DNA of 64,000 bases, from positions 818 through 64,817 of the forward strand of contig JAKZTI010000009.1 of assembly GCA_047517145.1 (NCBI GenBank). The letters run 5' to 3'. This document shows, piece after piece, positions 7,876 to 52,714 of the stretch (the stretch's first letter is position 1; each line of letters starts with the position of its first letter). The notes beneath the pieces were generated by a model that was given only the letters and a program-made list of their open reading frames with translations, searched no databases and was not told the DNA's origin. Source of the stretch: Gammaproteobacteria bacterium. Lineage in GTDB: Bacteria > Pseudomonadota > Gammaproteobacteria > Eutrophobiales > Eutrophobiaceae. The translations under genes and the position numbers were made by a program.

Positions 7876-9943
7876 TTATATATTGACATTTTCTCCCAGA
7901 ATCTTTGGTGTAACAAAGATAAGGAGTTCAGTTTTCGTACTCTCATCAGATGTACGTTTAAACAAAAACCCCAGGTAGGGTAAATCTCCAAAGAAAGGTA
8001 TCCTTTCTGTATTCTTGTTAGATGTCGTTCCGTATATACCTCCCAGTACCACCGTTTCGCCATTATCTACCATGACCTGTGTTCCAACATTCTGAGTATT
8101 AATGGTAGGAATACCACCGGCTACAGCTGCCCCCTGGGTATCCTGATTGACCTGTAAATCAAGCAATATCTTGTTATCAGGTGTAATCTGCGGTGTTACT
8201 CTCAAGGACAATACAGCTTTCTTGAACGATACTGTTGTCGCACCACTTGATGATGCTTCAGTGTAAGGTATCCTCGACACCTGACTCGATAATAGCTTCT
8301 CGCTGGTTAGTTGTAATAACTTTTGGACTGGCAATATTTTCACCTCGCCCTTCTGCAAGTAAGGCAGAAAGTTCTAACTGCAACAACCATGATCCTACTT
8401 TACCGACTGCAAGACCTATTGCGCCAGCATCTGCTGCGGTTACGGGTAAATCTACAATGAGATTTTCTACATCATCAACGTTAAAAGATGTTGGTGTAGC
8501 AAATTCTGTAGTAATACCTTCTTTACCACCACCTACTGTCCTAATGCCACCATTCACTGCAAAAAGAGATTTAGCGGCACCAAAACGCACACCTATGTCC
8601 TTGGCAAAAGTCTCATCCGCATTGACAATCCTTGATTCGATAAGCACTTGCCTGACCGGAACATCCAGCTTGGCGATCATTTCTCTCACACTCTGCAGAC
8701 TTTTAGCGACATCCTGAACAATCAAGGTATTGGTTCGAGCGTCAATCGTCACGGTACCGCGATCTGTTAATAAACTGTTCTCATCGGCACTGATCAAAGC
8801 AGCCAGTTCATCAGCCTTGGCGTAATTTATTTGCATGAATTCAGTGCGCATTGGGGCAAGTTCATCAACCTGTTTATTAGCTTCAAGCTCAAGTTTTTCA
8901 CGTGCTGCGATCTCTGCATTTGGCGCAACCATGATGACATTATCAATCTGTCTCATGCCCAGACCTTTTGCCTTCAGAATAATATCCAGGGCCTGATCCC
9001 AGGGTACATTCTTCAATCGTAAGGTCACGTTACCGCCAACAGTGTCACTGGCGACCATGTTCAGTCCTGTAAAATCAGCAATCAACTGTAACACTGCGCG
9101 TACTTCGATATCCTGAAAGTTCAGAGATAAACGCTCTCCGGTGAAGCCCACCTGCTCTTTTCTGGCCTCCTGCTCTTCTTCGTCCAGGGTCCGTACTTCA
9201 ACAACAAACGTATTGTCTGACTGATATGCCAGGTATTCATAGTCATCACTAATTGTTGATATCAGCATCCGTGTTCCACTATTACTTGCCTTTGTATCAA
9301 TCTCCTTAACGGGTGTTGCAAAATCAATAACATCGAGCTTTCTATCCAGTTCACCAGGAAGCCCGGCACCTATAAAATCAAGTACAATATTGCCACCTAT
9401 CTGATTCATATCCACACTAATTGAAGGATCAGACAAGGTGATAACAACTCTACCTTCACCATCATCACCCCTTCTAAAGTCGATGCCTTCCACCATGAAA
9501 CCTGTATCGCTGGTATAAGCACCAGTTGTCCCAGCTGAGCTTGCTACAACGCTGCTCGATACATCGCCAGCCAGCGTTACCGTTACTGTGCTGCCCTGAA
9601 CTTCGATATCATATCCTACGGATTTGACAAGATTCAGCACAACTCTAGTTCTGCCTGCTGCCTCTACTGCAGAAACACTATGCGCCACACCAACATCTAT
9701 TGACTGGTTTTTGGTGACATCACCAAGGGTAGTATTTGGAAAGTCCAATGCGATCCTTGCAGGATTATCGATAGTGAAACTCAGCGGTTCATCCTGTAAG
9801 GGTTCCGATAGCTCAATTTGTAATTGAACTCTTTCACCTGGCAAGACTGAATAACTGATATCGTCCAGTGTCGCTGCTTGTGTTAGAGCAAAAACACACA
9901 TTAAACCGAAAATAGTTACGATATGACCGAGTCGATTTATCAT
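7876..9943 (-). CDS. pilQ: type IV pilus secretin PilQ; reading frame interrupted by an apparent 1-nt insertion near 8275-8282 (two ORF fragments, 8258..10015 and 7876..8358)
   Basis: The N-terminal fragment carries a signal peptide (MINRLGHIVTIFGLMCVFALTQA), AMIN/N0 domains and the start of the secretin domain. The C-terminal fragment (VLSLRVTPQITPDNKILLDLQVNQDTQG...) is the conserved secretin C-terminus in a different frame. Joining the frames restores the expected ...IESGVE-IPYTEASSSGATT... sequence. Start set to the second Met after the basic n-region. Confidence 0.85.
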
Positions 9944-10011
9944 CACCTGTCCACCCCTAGTATTACTGTTAATATTATTCGCAGTCATCATCATGCCACC
10001 CCAGATTCTAA

Positions 10012-10581
10012 TCATTCTATTTCAACCAGCGCAATTGCTGCCTGACGTTCTTCCCAGCGTCCCTGACTATTCCTGACGATCTCCCTGACCTCTATCCTGT
10101 CTTCAAAAACATTCAGCACTTTTCCTGTATTACGTCCCATATAATTTCCAACGCGGATCCTATGTACAGCACCATCAGGATCCTGAATAATTCCCCAATT
10201 GGTTTCTCCATTATCCATCGTGCCAACCATACGCAGACTGTCCAGTTCGTATTGCTCTAGCTCTTCCTTGTTCCGGTTCCTTAACTCGTCTTCCATTTCT
10301 TTTGTTAAACCACCACTTTCACTTTCTTCTGCCAGCGATACTTCATCAGCCTGGTAAAAAAGTCTAAACGGATCACGTGCATCCTGTTCTGCAGATTGAT
10401 AGGCATATGCCTCATAGGGCTTAATCTCAGGTAAAGGCTCAATTCTGCCTCCCGGTCTCGCCAATATTTCTGCTATGTAGTTATCCAAATCGCTGGTATC
10501 AGTCGAAACACAGCTACCCAAAACCAGAAAGGTAGACACCAGGCCTGTTATCCAAATGACCTTCATACGAAACACAGCCAT
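10012..10581 (-). CDS. pilP: type IV pilus assembly lipoprotein PilP
   Basis: 189 aa with a lipoprotein signal (LVLGSC). Position and size match PilP; the TAATG overlap with the pilO stop suggests translational coupling; GGAGG SD 7 nt upstream. Confidence 0.85.
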   Translation of the reverse strand: MAVFRMKVIWITGLVSTFLVLGSCVSTDTSDLDNYIAEILARPGGRIEPLPEIKPYEAYAYQSAEQDARDPFRLFYQADEVSLAEESESGGLTKEMEDELRNRNKEELEQYELDSLRMVGTMDNGETNWGIIQDPDGAVHRIRVGNYMGRNTGKVLNVFEDRIEVREIVRNSQGRWEERQAAIALVEIE

Positions 10582-41783: not shown

Positions 41784-42380
41784 TTATGCGTAACCAAACC
41801 ACTGATCAAGTACCGCCCTGGCATCTTCCGCACCCGTCTTTTTCAAGGCTGAAAATAGCTGAATTGACACCAGATCATCGTTAATACGGCCTTTGAGCTC
41901 TTGTAATACAGACATCCCGGCACCACGGGAGAGCTTGTCTGATTTGTTCAATAAGATATGTGTGGGCAGTCCCACATCGAGCGCCCAGTCAAGCATCTGC
42001 TGGTCTTCAGGCTTAAGCGGGTGCCGAATATCCATGATCAAAATCAGGCCCAACAATGCATTTCTTTCCTGAAAATATCTGTTCAATGTTGCCCCCCAAT
42101 GCTTGCGCATCGCGACAGGAACCTTTGCATAACCATATCCGGGCAGATCAACCAGGCGTCGTTCATCGTCCAGAACAAAGATATTCATCTGCTGGGTTCG
42201 GCCAGGCGTTTTGCTGATGCGTGCCAGCTTCGAATTCGCCGTAATCACATTCAGGACGCTGGATTTACCGGCATTAGATCGTCCGGCAATCGCGACCTCA
42301 GTGCCAATATCATCAGGCAACTGCCTGATTTCATGTGCCCCCATGAGGAATGTGCTCTTGTTATAGTTGTTTTTTGACAA
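41784..42380 (-). CDS. engB: ribosome-biogenesis GTP-binding protein EngB/YihA
   Basis: 198 aa with G1 (GRSNAGKSS), G3 (DLPGYG) and G4 (NKSD) motifs. Confidence 0.92.
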   Translation of the reverse strand: MSKNNYNKSTFLMGAHEIRQLPDDIGTEVAIAGRSNAGKSSVLNVITANSKLARISKTPGRTQQMNIFVLDDERRLVDLPGYGYAKVPVAMRKHWGATLNRYFQERNALLGLILIMDIRHPLKPEDQQMLDWALDVGLPTHILLNKSDKLSRGAGMSVLQELKGRINDDLVSIQLFSALKKTGAEDARAVLDQWFGYA

Positions 42381-42540
42381 AATTTTGTCTCCAAAGATAG
42401 TAATAGTACACGTCCGTGCTGATATTGAGTAAAATGCAGGCTTGTAATCAAGTCTACTTAAGGTTCTGCAGATACATTAAAATATGCAGGAGAACCTTAG
42501 GTAGAAAAATAACATTCATTCTCAGGGTTCGACAGTCATT

Positions 42541-43440
42541 ATGAAACAAGCGTTAATGTTCAGTTCATTGGTTCTATTTATTTTCTCTAGTCACGCTTAC
42601 GCCGGTGATACGGCTGCCGAGGATGTTGCCGGGAAAACAACTTATGACAGTACTTGTATTGCCTGTCATGGCTCCGGCCTTCCGGGTATTCCACAATTAG
42701 GTGATGCTGCTGCATGGGCTCCACGTATTGAACAAGGAAATGACACGCTCTATAAACATGCGATATCCGGCTACACTGGCTCATCAGGCATGCCAATGCC
42801 TGCCAAAGGCGGTAATCCGGATCTCAGTGATGATGATGTTAAAGCAGCTGTAGATTATATGGTAACGAATAGTCAGGGCAACTCGACTGTAGCAAGTAAC
42901 CAGATGGCGCCGGCCGGAAATGAAAAAACAAAGACATGTGCAGCTTGTCATGGGGTCGACGGTAATAGTGTCAACCCTGTCTGGCCTAAATTAGCAGGTC
43001 AGCACGCGGAATATATCTTTAAGCAGCTAAAAGATTTTCATTCAGGATCACGCAAGAATGTTCAAATGAGTCCTCTTGCTGCTCCGCTCAGCGAGGAAGA
43101 CATGCAGGATATCGCCACCTATTACTCTTCGCAGAAAATAAAGATTGGACATGCCAGTGCTGAAACACTTCCACTGGGTGAACAAATATATCGTGCAGGT
43201 GATGCCAGCAAAGGACTCCCGGCATGTTTGGCTTGTCATGGCCCCAGTGGTGCTGGCAATCCAGCGGCATCATATCCAGCCTTAAGTGGTCAGCATGCTG
43301 AATACACAAAATTACAATTGCTGGCTTTTCGGGATAACATACGTACCAACGATTCCAACAAAGTTATGCAGATAGTCTCGGAAAAAATGACCACGGATGA
43401 AATTGATGCCGTTGCCAATTATATTCAAGGTTTACATTAA
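42541..43440 (+). CDS. triheme c-type cytochrome: N-terminal cytochrome c5 domain fused to diheme cytochrome c4
   Basis: 299 aa with a signal peptide and three CxxCH sites (CIACH, CAACH, CLACH). The first module has c5 signatures (LPGIPQLGDAAAWAPRIEQG...MPAKGGNPDLSDDDVKAAVDYMV). The C-terminal 190 aa is c4-like and ends ...ANYIQGLH. No signal peptide or stop codon separates the modules. Confidence 0.85.
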   Translation: MKQALMFSSLVLFIFSSHAYAGDTAAEDVAGKTTYDSTCIACHGSGLPGIPQLGDAAAWAPRIEQGNDTLYKHAISGYTGSSGMPMPAKGGNPDLSDDDVKAAVDYMVTNSQGNSTVASNQMAPAGNEKTKTCAACHGVDGNSVNPVWPKLAGQHAEYIFKQLKDFHSGSRKNVQMSPLAAPLSEEDMQDIATYYSSQKIKIGHASAETLPLGEQIYRAGDASKGLPACLACHGPSGAGNPAASYPALSGQHAEYTKLQLLAFRDNIRTNDSNKVMQIVSEKMTTDEIDAVANYIQGLH

Positions 43441-43518: not shown

Positions 43519-45498
43519 TTGTTTTACGTGAAAAGTTTAGCCAGTATTTTCTTTCGTTTCCTGGGTTCAATGAACCTGGCTATCACTTTACTTGTGGCCG
43601 TTGCCCTGTCTTCGGTCATAGGTACGCTACTTAAGCAAAACGAATCCTATCAAAGCTACATCATAAAATTCGGCCCTTTCTGGCATGAAGTGTATTTATC
43701 ACTTGGGCTGTACGATGTTTATAGTAGCGCATGGTTTATCGGCATCCTGTCTTTTCTGGTTATCACAACCAGCATCTGCATCACGCAAAATGGCCCAGGT
43801 ATTCTGCGTAGCATGCAACGATTCAAAGAGCTCATTTCGGCACGGTCCTTGAGGACAATGAAGCAACATGAAGAATGGCGCTGTGATATGGATATAGATA
43901 AGGCATACAAAGGCCTGTGTTATTTTTTTAAAAAATCAGGCTATCGAGTGCGAACACGTGAAAATGAACAAGGCTACACCCTCGCTGCCATGCATGGCGC
44001 GAGCAATCGGCTTGGCTATATCCTGACGCATGTCGCTATCGTCGTCATCTGCCTGGGAGGATTAATCGATGGCAATCTTCCTTTAAAGGTTAAAACACTG
44101 ACAGGCCAATTAAGAATTGAAAAAGATAATAATGCCCGCGTCTCAGAGATCCCCGATGCTAGCATATTGAGCATTGACAATCCTTCTTTCAGGGCAAGTG
44201 TCACTATTCCTGAAGGCAAGACAGTAAGTGTTGCTTTTCAGAATATTGCCGATGGTTATCTGGTACAAAGACTGCCTTTTTCAATCGAGGTAGTAGATTT
44301 TCGTATTGAACATTATGAAAGTGGCCAACCGAAATCATTTGAAAGCGATCTCATCATCCATGACCCGGAAGCAGATGCGCGCATCACCGAAACAATATCA
44401 GTCAACCACCCTTTGAGTTACAAAGGTTATACAATTTATCAGGCGAGCTTCACAGATGGCGGCTCACAGCTCGATATGCTGCTGCATCAACTGCGTAATA
44501 ATGAAGTAAGTTCGCTTGAAATCAGTGGCCGTATCAACGAGACATTATCTATCAATACCAATAACGATCCGATCACGCTCGAGCTTGATGAATTTCGTTT
44601 ATTCAACATTTTCCCTGTTGCCGAAGATGAGGCTACAGATAAAAAATTCAGGGATCAGGGCCCAAATTTTACATTTAAATTAAGAAAACAGGATGGCAGT
44701 GCCGTTGAGTTTGTTAATTATATGCAGCCATTAATGATTAATAGCAGAAAATATTTTTTGAGTGGCATGCGTACGACACCTGCAGATGAATTCAAGTATC
44801 TACATATCCCTGCAGATAATGCTGATTCACCTCAGCGCTTCCTGAAATTTCAGGCATTGCTGAGAGACGACGAAAACATCCTACAAGCCGCCAGAACTAT
44901 TGCCAAAAGAGAAAATATTCTGGAATCAAATGAAGAATTTCTTGGCGCGACCAAAACACTTGTTGAATTATTTTTATCAGGCGGGTTTGAAAGTATTCAA
45001 AATCATCTGCAAGCAAATGTGCCAGAAAAAGAACAAGCCGAAGTCTCCGAGATTTATATGAAGATGTTACAGAACACTCTGCAGCAAGTATTTGTCGATA
45101 TGCTGATAACCGAGGGAGTTCAGAACACGGATGAAGTGAGTCAAAATGAAACCCGGTTTTTCCAGGATACAGTACTCGCGCTATCTGCCTTACCATTCTA
45201 TCAATCACCTTTTTATCTGGAACTGAGAAATTTTGAACACAAACAAGCAACTGGTTTACAGATCACCAGGACGCCAGGAAAAATTTATGTGTATATCGGC
45301 TTTGCCATGCTGATTACTGGTGTTTTTCTGTTATTTTACGTTTCCCACCAACGAGTCTGGGTCATCCTGGAAAGACATGACAACAGCACTCGACTGCTAA
45401 TTGCAGGGAATGCAAACCGTCATAAAACTGAATTTTCCGAAAAATTTAGAGAAATGACTGGCATAATAAAAGGTGAACTAAAACCGATAGATAGTTAA
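43519..45498 (+). CDS. ccsB: cytochrome c biogenesis protein ResB/CcsB (system II)
   Basis: 659 aa with an N-terminal TM segment (…AITLLVAVALSSVIGTLLKQNE), a large periplasmic domain and C-terminal TM segments. Confidence 0.88.
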   Translation: MFYVKSLASIFFRFLGSMNLAITLLVAVALSSVIGTLLKQNESYQSYIIKFGPFWHEVYLSLGLYDVYSSAWFIGILSFLVITTSICITQNGPGILRSMQRFKELISARSLRTMKQHEEWRCDMDIDKAYKGLCYFFKKSGYRVRTRENEQGYTLAAMHGASNRLGYILTHVAIVVICLGGLIDGNLPLKVKTLTGQLRIEKDNNARVSEIPDASILSIDNPSFRASVTIPEGKTVSVAFQNIADGYLVQRLPFSIEVVDFRIEHYESGQPKSFESDLIIHDPEADARITETISVNHPLSYKGYTIYQASFTDGGSQLDMLLHQLRNNEVSSLEISGRINETLSINTNNDPITLELDEFRLFNIFPVAEDEATDKKFRDQGPNFTFKLRKQDGSAVEFVNYMQPLMINSRKYFLSGMRTTPADEFKYLHIPADNADSPQRFLKFQALLRDDENILQAARTIAKRENILESNEEFLGATKTLVELFLSGGFESIQNHLQANVPEKEQAEVSEIYMKMLQNTLQQVFVDMLITEGVQNTDEVSQNETRFFQDTVLALSALPFYQSPFYLELRNFEHKQATGLQITRTPGKIYVYIGFAMLITGVFLLFYVSHQRVWVILERHDNSTRLLIAGNANRHKTEFSEKFREMTGIIKGELKPIDS

Positions 45499-45576: not shown

Positions 45577-46749
45577 ATGGCAAGCGATACTCTTTTTAAA
45601 AACACCGGTAGAAACTATTGGCTAGAGCAATTAACACCCATCAGCATGTTGTGGGTCTTATTGCTGTTGGCAGGAACTGCTTTCGCGGCCAGTCAATACC
45701 AACACAATATGGACGCCTATGAATTAGGTATCCTCATAAGTGCAGGAATTGTATTCAGTTTTCTTGGTCTGTCCTGGCGCCCTATACAAGGCCTCATCAT
45801 GGTCGTTTCTCTTTTAAGTCTCTGCAGCATTTCGTTATATGGTGCTAACCTGGAGGCATCCGAACAGAATTTCTTTCTAAGATTTTTACTCTCCAGTCAA
45901 TCAGCAATCATGTGGATGAGTGCACTGTATGTTATGGCAACAGTGGCATACCTTGGAAATCTCTTGTCAGGTTCCAGCTTCACGGGAAAAGTCGCGACCG
46001 CTTTTACCTGGTCTGCAACCATCATGGGGCTAACCGGATTACTGGTTCGTTGGCGCGAATCCTATTTGATGAGCCCGGACATCGGCCATATACCCGTCAG
46101 TAATCTGTATGAAGTCTTTATCCTGTTTTGTTTGATTACTGGCCTGGTTTATCTCTATTACGAAAATAAATTTAGAACACGAAGCATGGGAACTTTTGTG
46201 CTCCTGGTCATCAGTGCTGCAGTCGGCTTTCTGCTTTGGTATACATTTTCAAAAGGTGCCAACGAAATTCAGCCACTGGTACCTGCGCTAAAAAGCTATT
46301 GGATGAAAATCCATGTGCCTGCAAATTTTATTGGCTATGGTTGTTTCAGCCTCTCAGCCATGTTGGGGACAGCCTATTTAGTTAGAAATTTTATAGAACG
46401 TAAGGCACCAGGCTCATTCATCCTCTCTCGTCTGCCGTCTTATGATTTGCTTGATGATGTGATGTATAAATCCATCGCACTAGGTTTTGCCTTTTTCACC
46501 ATCGCAACCATCCTCGGTGCCTTATGGGCAGCAGAGGCATGGGGAGGTTACTGGTCATGGGATCCAAAAGAGACCTGGGCACTTATTGTCTGGTTAAATT
46601 ACGCTGCCTGGTTACATATGCGCATGACCAAAGGCTGGAAAGGCACACCTATGGCATGGTGGTCTATCATTGGTCTATTCGTGACATTATTCGCTTTCCT
46701 CGGTGTTAATATGTTTTTATCCGGTTTACATTCCTACGGTGAATTATAA
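45577..46749 (+). CDS. ccsA: cytochrome c biogenesis protein CcsA/ResC (system II heme-handling)
   Basis: 390 aa, polytopic, with a WWD-type heme-binding motif (WGGYWSWDPKETW). Confidence 0.9.
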   Translation: MASDTLFKNTGRNYWLEQLTPISMLWVLLLLAGTAFAASQYQHNMDAYELGILISAGIVFSFLGLSWRPIQGLIMVVSLLSLCSISLYGANLEASEQNFFLRFLLSSQSAIMWMSALYVMATVAYLGNLLSGSSFTGKVATAFTWSATIMGLTGLLVRWRESYLMSPDIGHIPVSNLYEVFILFCLITGLVYLYYENKFRTRSMGTFVLLVISAAVGFLLWYTFSKGANEIQPLVPALKSYWMKIHVPANFIGYGCFSLSAMLGTAYLVRNFIERKAPGSFILSRLPSYDLLDDVMYKSIALGFAFFTIATILGALWAAEAWGGYWSWDPKETWALIVWLNYAAWLHMRMTKGWKGTPMAWWSIIGLFVTLFAFLGVNMFLSGLHSYGEL

Positions 46750-46777
46750 TTCACTCCATTTCAAGGGTCTTAGATAC

Positions 46778-47521
46778 ATGAGTAAAAAATCACTTTGGAC
46801 ACAATTAACCAGTATTATTCTGCTTGCTACTCTCAGCTTGCTTTCAGCTTGTTCTGATGCTGAAGAAAATCTATCTAAAAACAATATTGAGGCAGTTCCT
46901 GCGATACAAGAGCAGGCTGCAACGTTAGCTCCAGCTAAACAGACAAAGGTAGTATTGAAAAATGTCACTGGCCTCTATAAAGAACTTCCCTCCGTACAGC
47001 CGACCAGGACAGGCGATAAGATAGAAGTCCTGGAAGTCTTCTGGTATGGCTGTCCCCATTGTTATCATTTTGAACCGGTAATTGAAAAATGGCTCGAAGA
47101 AAAGGCTGAGTACATTGAGTTTGTTCGTATGCCAGGTATTCTGGGCAAAAACTGGTTGCCCCATGCCAGGGCTTTTTATGCAGCAGAGAAATTAGGCATC
47201 CTTGATATAATTCATAAACCTTTGTTTGATGCGATAAACAAAGATAAAAGAAAAATCCTTGATGAAAAGAGCCTCAGGGTGTTCTTCTCAGAACATGGTG
47301 TCAGTGGTGATGAATTTGACCAGGCCTACAACTCAAGGGAAGTCGAAGAAAAAGTCAGAGCAGCCTTTACAGCAGGACAGGGTTATGCGCTAACAGGCGT
47401 TCCAGCCATCATTATCAACGGTAAATATACGACAAGTGCATCAATGGCAGGTAGCTTTGAAAAAATTATTGATGTGATAAACACCCTGGCAGCAAAAGAA
47501 TATAAAAAATTAAATGAATAA
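46778..47521 (+). CDS. dsbA: thiol:disulfide interchange protein, DsbA family, lipoprotein-anchored
   Basis: Lipobox (LLSAC) and a CPHC active site (VFWYGCPHCYHFEP). The position after cc4-resB-ccsA matches the Pseudomonas cc4-dsbA neighbourhood. Start set to the ATG at 46778. Confidence 0.82.
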   Translation: MSKKSLWTQLTSIILLATLSLLSACSDAEENLSKNNIEAVPAIQEQAATLAPAKQTKVVLKNVTGLYKELPSVQPTRTGDKIEVLEVFWYGCPHCYHFEPVIEKWLEEKAEYIEFVRMPGILGKNWLPHARAFYAAEKLGILDIIHKPLFDAINKDKRKILDEKSLRVFFSEHGVSGDEFDQAYNSREVEEKVRAAFTAGQGYALTGVPAIIINGKYTTSASMAGSFEKIIDVINTLAAKEYKKLNE

Positions 47522-51768: not shown

Positions 51769-51845
51769 TGGCGCGCCCGACAGGATTTGAACCTGTGACC
51801 TTTGGTTTCGGAAACCAATACTCTATCCAACTGAGCTACGGGCGC
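51769..51845 (-). tRNA. tRNA-Arg (anticodon CCG)
   Basis: Minus-strand sequence GCGCCCGTAGCTCAGTTGGATAGAGTATTGGTTTCCGAAACCAAAGGTCACAGGTTCAAATCCTGTCGGGCGCGCCA folds as a cloverleaf. The anticodon loop is TTCCGAA, and it closely resembles E. coli argX. Confidence 0.92.
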
Positions 51846-51961: not shown

Positions 51962-51983
51962 TATCCAACTGAGCTACGGACGC
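51962..51983 (-). other. 22-nt partial copy of the tRNA-Arg 5' end (acceptor plus D-arm), 117 bp upstream of the tRNA
   Basis: Minus-strand GCGTCCGTAGCTCAGTTGGATA matches the first 22 nt of the tRNA at 21 of 22 positions. The rest does not fold as a tRNA. Confidence 0.6.
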
Positions 51984-52035
51984 GTAATCTGACTAAAACC
52001 GGGAAAAGGGTACCTTTTAGTCCAACTGGCGTCTA

Positions 52036-52192: not shown

Positions 52193-52714
52193 ATGAGTCA
52201 AGAACAAGATAAAGCATTTTTCAAAAATTTTTCCATCGTACTGCTTACCTTGGTTGGGCTCATGGCTATTTTCATGGTCCTGGGAGTTATGTTCGGCGGT
52301 ATTGAAAAATCCATCGAAGATGTTGCCGCAGAAACTATGGCAAACACTGCTCCCGTTGCCAAGGTGCAAATGCAAGGGGATGAACCTGAAGCTACACCAG
52401 CTACCGAAGGAAGCACTGCCATGGAAGAAAATACAGAAATGGCAGCCACTGGCAGCGATGACGCAGGCAAGGCAACCTATGACAGCATTTGTGTGGCATG
52501 TCATGGTTCGGGAATACCGGGGATACCTCAACTAGGTGATGCAGCTGCCTGGGCTCCTCGTATCGAACAGGGTAATGATGCACTGTATGAGCATGCCATT
52601 GTTGGTTATACAGGCGCTTCAGGTATGCCGATGCCAGCCAAAGGCGGAAATCCGGATCTGAGTGATGATGCTGTAAAAGCTGCTGTTGATTACATGGTCG
52701 TTAATAGTCAATAG
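52193..52714 (+). CDS. membrane-anchored cytochrome c5 (monoheme)
   Basis: 173 aa with an N-terminal TM anchor, an acidic linker and a CVACH heme site. Its c5 domain is about 88% identical to the c5 module of the 42541 fusion protein. Confidence 0.85.
   Translation: MSQEQDKAFFKNFSIVLLTLVGLMAIFMVLGVMFGGIEKSIEDVAAETMANTAPVAKVQMQGDEPEATPATEGSTAMEENTEMAATGSDDAGKATYDSICVACHGSGIPGIPQLGDAAAWAPRIEQGNDALYEHAIVGYTGASGMPMPAKGGNPDLSDDAVKAAVDYMVVNSQ

Follow-up and report, generated by a model that had tools for sequence, protein, structure and literature searches.

A conserved c5-c4 fusion gene predicted to encode a secreted triheme cytochrome in uncultured marine Gammaproteobacteria

In the bc1-c4c5-cbb3 supercomplex of Pseudomonas aeruginosa, electrons run from heme c1 to both hemes of cytochrome c4, and the head of cytochrome c5 spans a gap of >40 Å to CcoP; the N-terminal tail of c5 holds this head by c4, and a flexible linker lets it move (PMC10556555). 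In Neisseria, recombination grafted a c5 head and a low-complexity linker onto the diheme CcoP, and the extra head of the resulting tri-heme CcoP supports electron flow to NirK (PMC2924362). Here we describe a gene that joins c5 and c4 in a single chain. It lies in a 64,000-nt stretch of DNA (the window) from a gammaproteobacterium of the family Eutrophobiaceae (GenBank assembly GCA_047517145.1, contig JAKZTI010000009.1, positions 818 to 64,817 of the forward strand), and would encode, behind one signal peptide, a c5-family monoheme head, a linker and a diheme c4. Coordinates are collected in Table 1.

The c4 part of the fusion is like stand-alone c4 (6q2u/8smr_K and 1etp) at 44-46% identity, with a template modeling (TM) score of 0.87-0.91 and a root-mean-square deviation (rmsd) of 1.1-1.4 Å, and it shares the engB-side locus; unlike stand-alone c4, the fusion has an extra heme domain between the signal peptide and mature c4. 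With anchored c5 proteins (8smr_L, 1cc5, 5b6q and the one encoded in the window) the fused head shares fold and family, a CXXCH motif near its start and a Met in GMPMPAKGG, but it has neither anchor nor N-terminal tail and its C-terminus is joined to c4. The P. aeruginosa pair (PMC10556555) unites the same carrier families and has a mobile c5 head flexibly tethered beside c4; there the association is non-covalent, through a c5 N-terminal tail that binds c4 and c1, whereas here, as far as the genes tell, the c5 C-terminus is peptide-bonded to c4. The tri-heme CcoP likewise gains its third heme from a c5 head and a low-complexity linker on a diheme partner, with the c5 gene kept, but the recipient here is a soluble c4 and the graft is N-terminal, whereas the CcoP graft is C-terminal. 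Tandem arrays of a transmembrane anchor and two or three c5 heads (a group that also includes the Neisseria diheme c5) repeat in frame the same unit of AGK, c5 head, NSQ and linker; unlike the fusion they are membrane-anchored and made of c5 domains only. In the literature, of which our coverage is incomplete, we found neither a c5-c4 fusion nor a triheme c4 described. The parts and the grafting of c5 domains were already known; the combination is new, and reveals no new fold, cofactor or pathway.

A conserved in-frame fusion

A first-pass annotation of the window, made by a model from the sequence alone, had read the gene as one open reading frame (ORF) with a signal peptide, a c5 module, a Ser/Asn-rich linker and a complete diheme c4, and with no stop codon or second signal peptide between c5 and c4. 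The ORF and its domain matches agree with this description, as does inspection of the sequence, and the peptides quoted (CIACH...GIPQLGDAAAWAPRIEQG...MPAKGGNPDLSDDDVKAAVDYMV and ...ANYIQGLH) are found exactly as given. By inspection, the N-terminus, MKQALMFSSLVLFIFSSHAYA followed by GD, has the n/h/c layout and AxA site of a cleavable signal peptide, and no second hydrophobic segment was seen after it in the 299-aa protein. Pfam PF00034 matches three cytochrome-c stretches (E 2e-33), and there are three CXXCH motifs, starting at C39, C133 and C229; residues 22-124 hold no cysteines other than C39 and C42. The product is predicted to be acidic and soluble, at ~31 kDa with three hemes; the calculated mass is 29.2 kDa for the mature apoprotein and 31.1 kDa once the hemes are added.

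Both halves match their families when aligned to stand-alone c5 and c4 proteins, a comparison that the annotation had proposed. Residues 123-299 match the solved c4 structures of P. aeruginosa (6q2u/8smr, E 3.5e-50) and P. stutzeri (1etp, E 2.7e-49), and residues 28-111 match c5-family monohemes (4j20, E 4e-24), including the c5 of S. violacea (5b6q, E 5.6e-14), P. aeruginosa (8smr_L, E 3.5e-11) and A. vinelandii (1cc5, E 2e-9). An AlphaFold2 model made from an alignment of 75 sequences has a mean predicted local distance difference test (pLDDT) score of 87, with two confident units at approximately residues 30-112 and 128-299 (pLDDT ~90+) joined by a linker at 62-64 that falls below 50 at residues 120-123. 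Foldseek places the second unit on 8smr_K, the c4 of the P. aeruginosa supercomplex (TM 0.91, rmsd 1.1 Å), and the N-terminal unit on 4j20 (TM 0.89) and the S. violacea c5 (TM 0.81). No chain spanning all three domains was found by Foldseek among solved structures.

By its two domains with CXXCH and Met, its similarity in sequence and fold and its position at the locus, the C-terminal 175 residues are assigned to cytochrome c4. The N-terminal module, whose nearest database relatives are named cytochrome c5, is on the same kind of evidence classed as a c5-family head domain and not as a c5 protein, because the membrane anchor is absent and the only N-terminal signal is a cleavable signal peptide of c4 type. 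Classical c5 proteins of Azotobacter and Pseudomonas have an intradomain disulfide formed by a second Cys pair. This pair is absent from the fused head and also from the window's anchored c5; two other fused proteins described below, P0115 and P0252, carry it as GTCM(T/D)CS. We also considered whether the fusion could be a CcoP, and rejected this at a TIGR00782 score of 59 bits against a cut-off of 179.95 and with no cco genes nearby.

Full-length homologs were sought with a word-indexed search of 5.8 billion proteins and clustered at 90% identity. The fused ones form 20 clusters. Twelve (P0001-P0012, 99 member sequences) share 77-100% identity with the window protein, and eight (P0014-P0021, 29 member sequences) share 56-61%; members were drawn from NCBI, JGI, ENA and Logan assemblies and bear only generic public names such as 'cytochrome c553'. 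P0001, from an independent ENA assembly, is the window protein with one substitution. The order M48 peptidase, engB, divergent fusion gene, resB, ccsA is repeated at three further loci (L001, L002 and L032). In an alignment of 21 fused proteins, no variation is seen in the three CXXCH motifs or in M86, M176 and M276, the presumptive Met ligands. Ratios of nonsynonymous to synonymous substitution (dN/dS) among the window, L001 and L002 are 0.09-0.13 for the c5 part, ~0.06 for the c4 part and 0.18-0.59 for the linker, whose length (~12-17 aa in the clade that includes the window, clade A) and sequence differ between orthologs. The c5 part is under strong purifying selection.

The first-pass annotation had held that the gene is a true fusion and not read-through, while noting that an error near 42880-42940, a missing stop codon or a frameshift, could have falsely joined two genes. 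The window does hold a gene broken by a frame change, pilQ, which is either a real pseudogene or the result of an indel error. We nevertheless give an artefact at the fusion junction virtually no credence: the uninterrupted architecture recurs in clusters with well over 100 members in all and is not traceable to one reference, the three further loci have matching neighbours, the junction codons are in frame across the aligned loci, selection acts on the c5 part, and between the domains there is neither a start codon or anchor of c5 type nor a second signal peptide of c4 type. Comparison across independent assemblies thus upholds the fusion and contradicts an error at the junction. The gene is real and has been passed on vertically within a clade of uncultured marine Gammaproteobacteria; its predicted product is a secreted triheme c-type cytochrome.

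Origin of the fused gene

The closest relatives of the c4 part (P0022-P0050) are ordinary 200-aa c4 proteins, 78-87% identical to it, which share the fusion's signal peptide; their N-termini read MKQALTFTSLFLFVFSCHVYAGDVTAGKEKSAICAACHG..., compared with MKQALMFSSLVLFIFSSHAYAGDTAAEDVAGKTTYDS... in the fused form. Such a plain c4 occupies exactly the fusion's locus in sister genomes. Aligned at the DNA level, loci with the fusion (window, L001, L002) and loci without it (L003-L007, L023) stay collinear from the engB-c4 intergenic region past the ribosome-binding site and on through the signal peptide; thereafter the two types differ by a single clean in-frame gap that ends at gcNggNaaagaaaaa. 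The gap, ~97-99 codons as judged from protein lengths, separates the codons for GDV(A/T) from those for AGKEK. What fills it in the fused genes is a block that opens AGK-TTYDS, runs to DYMVTNSQ and the linker, and is followed by AGN-EK, so that codons for Ala-Gly-Lys/Asn stand at both junctions (gcc ggg aaa and gcc gga aat).

The window also holds an ordinary c5 gene ~9 kb downstream of the fusion, whose product has an N-terminal anchor, MSQEQDKAFFKNF...GVMFGG, that is absent from the fused protein; its head begins DDAGK-ATYDS and ends DYMVVNSQ at the stop codon. It is 81.5% identical to the fused module over 92 aa (tblastn) and 88% over an 80-residue core. The synonymous divergence (dS) between anchored c5 and fused head is >1.2 (saturated), compared with 0.35-0.55 between fused heads of different genomes, which points to an old duplication, with fused heads orthologous to one another. 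We considered whether anchored c5 and fused head had undergone gene conversion recently, which this saturation rules out. Orthologs of the anchored protein are labelled 'cytochrome c5' by NCBI and JGI, and the c5-dctP-uvrD locus is kept whether or not a genome carries the fusion (L012-L017). On chromosome OZ253445.1 c4 is unfused (L003) and c5 lies elsewhere (L015), and the metagenome-assembled genome (MAG) QNEM01 has the fusion (L001) plus a separate c5 (L014). From these comparisons we take the anchored c5 to be a paralog whose family supplied the inserted head.

The stand-alone c5 has itself changed in part of the fused clade. In some of these genomes, MAG QNEM01 for example, its transmembrane anchor is lost and a 37-aa remnant ORF is left. 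The c5 at L014 (495..1154) and in P0138, P0149 and P0151 starts with a lipoprotein-type signal peptide (...LAGLTG/C) in a conserved 160-aa form, so that a helix anchor has been swapped for a lipid anchor.

These observations strongly support an origin in which a c5 head was duplicated and placed in frame, together with a short low-complexity linker, directly after the signal-peptide codons of c4, at the point where ...YAGDV meets AGKEK.... The gene would have kept what c4 has upstream, from promoter region to ribosome-binding site and signal peptide, and the c5 membrane anchor would not have been copied along with the head. Recombination probably took place at the short AGK motif with which c5 and c4 domains alike begin, as its presence at both junctions suggests. 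The donor may have been a repeat unit of a tandem c5 array; the unit AGK...NSQ-linker-AGK is repeated in the arrays of relatives (P0051, P0080, P0101, P0061, P0245 and L020), and its boundaries match those of the inserted block.

Multi-head anchored c5 proteins are common in related Gammaproteobacteria. We saw two heads in P0051, P0080, P0101, P0297, P0301, P0312 and P0344 and three in P0061 and P0245, with an example at L020 581..1123; their linkers are rich in Ala, Ser, Thr and Pro.

The first-pass annotation had implied another route, the merger of adjacent c5 and c4 genes at an engB/dsbA locus, with c5 upstream, by loss of the c5 stop codon and the c4 signal peptide. In Pseudomonas, c5 and c4 presumably lie side by side between engB and dsbA, much as the annotation had stated for Pseudomonas-like genomes; a literature search on P. 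aeruginosa PA5490/PA5491 gave nothing. The c5-c4 domain order would suit such a merger, and the distant fusion type of P0252/P0115, in which a full c4 N-terminus (GDAAAGQ...) follows a long linker, could stem from one. In the window's clade, however, the fusion resembles c4 in its signal peptide and in all that lies upstream, and it lacks the c5 anchor; in the closest unfused relatives no c5 gene separates engB from c4, and among 32 loci none has a c5 gene there with a fusion-like signal peptide. The anchored c5 persists intact at c5-dctP-uvrD in fused and unfused genomes alike. Where the two genes are near each other in more distant relatives (L008 and L030) the order is engB, divergent c4, then c5 and (dctP) uvrD, the reverse of the fusion's domain order. 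Because of the c4-like upstream region and signal peptide, the intact anchored c5 and the reversed gene order, we favour insertion and regard merger as very improbable.

Deletion is a further alternative: the fusion would be ancestral, and the 200-aa c4 of sister lineages would have arisen by repeated precise deletion between the AGK repeats. A 9-bp near-repeat flanks the module and could mediate such deletion, and a second, more distant fused group (clade B, P0015-P0021 with P0014 nearby) has a like junction style. Trees of the parts speak to this. For the c5 tree the fused sequences were taken from the full-length search, there being none among the best 120 matches of the c5-module search. 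In the c4-part tree, clade A is nested among many unfused c4 lineages, clade B lies among other unfused c4, and P0115 is far away. Bootstraps for the c4 part are 0/200 for all fused proteins together, 196/200 for clade B and 160/200 for clade A with the near unfused proteins and P0052; for the c5 part they are 0/200 for clades A and B together and 190/200 for clade B. A single origin of all fused forms, whose monophyly is 0/200 in both the c4 and c5 parts, was therefore rejected. The value of 0/200 for an exclusive group of clade A modules and the lineage's anchored c5 carries no weight, because the outgroup list contained members of that lineage. The clade A module shares 88% identity with that clade's anchored c5 but 71% with the clade B module.

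Identity of the flanking genes groups the fused genomes and places unfused genomes as successively more distant outgroups, and the increasingly distant outgroup loci L003-L011, L023 and L024 are all unfused, so an ancestral fusion would need many independent, identical deletions. Such a history is less likely than independent gains, and we consider it distinctly improbable; the parsimonious reading of the sequences is that the fusion was gained in clade A and, independently, at least once more.

Some points count against the insertion account. The trees are neighbour-joining trees of short domains with 200 bootstraps, and support for the monophyly of clade A itself is moderate (135/200 for the c4 part and 79/200 for the c5 part). 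By eye, the linker has no convincing similarity to the 3′ flank of the window's c5 gene or to the inter-domain linker of P0051.

A full HMMER scan of 1.84 billion representatives (a 50%-identity library) was used to find other architectures. It added c5-c4 clusters P0252 (with P0115), P0254 and P0292, the reverse order c4-c5 with c5 C-terminal (P0279 and P0309), and trihemes made of a c4 half and a c4 (P0255, P0282 and P0291).

A possible covalent relay

We propose the following route by analogy with the P. aeruginosa supercomplex. The pre-protein would be exported by Sec and cleaved after AYA, and its three hemes attached by the System II synthase ResB/CcsA, encoded directly downstream. The c4 part would dock on cytochrome c1 of bc1, take electrons and pass them across its two hemes, and the c5 head would swing on its flexible linker to carry them from c4 to a terminal oxidase's c-heme subunit (CcoP of cbb3 type, or another acceptor). 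A peptide bond would thus replace the non-covalent c5 tail, giving a covalent relay from c1 through c4 and c5 to CcoP. It is plausible that the fusion feeds cbb3/aa3 oxidases, and a covalently tethered c4-to-c5 relay between bc1 and a terminal oxidase is its likely role.

The head could instead divert c4 electrons to another periplasmic acceptor, such as a NirK-type nitrite reductase, N2O reductase or peroxidase. This finds a precedent in the Neisseria tri-heme CcoP, whose extra c5-derived domain serves NirK (PMC2924362); some c5 homologs are named NosC (P0224), and since the genome still has its anchored c5, the path to the oxidase may already be covered. On the other side, nitrite and N2O reductase genes are absent from the window and the fetched loci, and the fused head, 88% identical to the anchored c5 head, is similarly acidic (isoelectric point ~4.3 versus 4.2), which suggests the same partner surfaces. 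We consider diversion unlikely, though less so than any of the alternatives for the gene's origin.

The relay to an oxidase has its own difficulties. Neither bc1 (petABC) nor oxidase (cco) genes are found in the 64-kb window, and what is said of expression, heme loading and redox partners is inferred from homology. The geometry differs, the P. aeruginosa c5 being tethered by its N-terminus and the fused head by its C-terminus to the N-terminus of c4. The anchored c5 is kept, so that the fused head is an addition and not a replacement, and may have another acceptor. With these points weighed, we still think it probable that the whole explanation holds, that is, a real gene, insertion of a c5 head into c4, and a covalent c4-to-c5 relay.

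Proteins that work as partners would be expected to become fused repeatedly and in both orders, as c5 and c4 have been. More tentatively, and with somewhat more doubt than belief, we suggest that c5 and c4 have been welded repeatedly and independently, that the c4-to-c5 hand-off is a widespread selectable unit, and that the fused head is a tethered swinging arm to the oxidase. If true, such repeated welding would provide a natural 'Rosetta stone' and a single-chain tool for electron transfer within the supercomplex. A natural covalent c5-c4 protein, maintained by purifying selection and arisen anew in several lineages and in both domain orders, lends independent comparative support, from outside pathogens, to the c4-c5 pairing suggested by PMC10556555, and a single soluble triheme chain of ~31 kDa would be a suitable object for study of intramolecular c4-c5 electron transfer and the effects of tether length. 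The gene also offers a clean, datable case of a domain inserted in frame after a signal peptide, through a shared motif of three codons, parallel to the c5 graft behind the Neisseria tri-heme CcoP.

Locus and neighbouring genes

Table 1. Features of the c5-c4 fusion gene and its surroundings (window positions)
Feature	Coordinates	Strand	Remarks
Whole c5-c4 fusion gene	42541..43440	+	ORF from ATG to TAA, 299 aa, stop codon counted
Sec-type signal peptide, MKQALMFSSLVLFIFSSHAYA	42541..42603	+	Predicted cut after AYA, by inspection; homologous to the stand-alone c4 signal peptide of sister genomes
Inserted c5-family monoheme head	42628..42876	+	Residues 30-112, AGKTTYDS...DYMVTNSQ; PDB and Foldseek matches
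c5-head heme motif C39IACH43	42655..42669	+	
c5-head axial Met86 (presumptive)	42796..42798	+	
Flexible linker, GNSTVASNQMAP	42877..42912	+	Residues 113-124, 12 residues, Ser/Asn/Thr-rich
Diheme cytochrome c4 part	42913..43437	+	Residues 125-299; opens AGNEK, a repeat of the AGK junction motif
First c4 heme motif C133AACH	42937..42951	+	
c4 Met ligand M176 (presumptive)	43066..43068	+	
Second c4 heme motif C229LACH	43225..43239	+	
c4 Met ligand M276 (presumptive)	43366..43368	+	
engB (GTPase)	41784..42380	-	Divergent; left neighbour kept at fused and unfused loci
Promoter-like TTGACA-16-GATAGT	42374..42401	+	engB/c4 intergenic; mostly within the stretch aligned between fused and unfused loci
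resB	43519..45498	+	System II cytochrome c heme attachment; directly downstream of the fusion
ccsA	45577..46749	+	System II heme attachment; after resB
DsbA-domain gene (dsbA)	46703..47521	+	Downstream, after resB and ccsA
Ordinary cytochrome c5 gene	52193..52714	+	173 aa: N-terminal membrane anchor, acidic linker, c5 head; ~9 kb downstream of the fusion

The neighbours named in the first-pass annotation, engB and dsbA, are both there, dsbA lying further downstream, behind resB and ccsA. The Pfam ResB and Cytochrom_C_asm families match the orthologous genes of locus L032. As called, the dsbA ORF has a GTG start, shares 47 nt with the end of ccsA and shows its DSBA domain only from residue 109; its true start is probably further downstream. 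Promoter-like sites such as the one in Table 1 are no commoner in the engB/c4 region than in shuffled sequence, so this site is a weak lead, and a site scan of the region found no terminator-like site between the fusion gene and resB. At L023 (4800..5560 on chromosome OZ244890.1), after an unfused c4, tblastn gives fragmentary, overlapping matches to resB 252-385 and ccsA 267-390, which suggests that resB-ccsA is degraded or rearranged there.

The window also encodes, among others, gltB, aroKB, pilMNOPQ, PBP1a, priA, argS, peptidases and msrA, none of which bears on the role of the fusion, and its only Rfam matches are two tRNAs. The 5′ end of one of these, tRNA-Arg(CCG) at 51769..51845 (- strand), is repeated directly at 51962..51990, 138 nt off and just upstream of the anchored c5 gene (29 nt, 90% identity); the repeat may be the scar of an integration/excision event or of a tRNA duplication. 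The frame change in pilQ (7876..10015, - strand) leaves an ORF at 8258..10015 with AMIN, STN and Secretin_N domains and an overlapping one at 7876..8358 with the C-terminal Secretin domain (E 9e-42).

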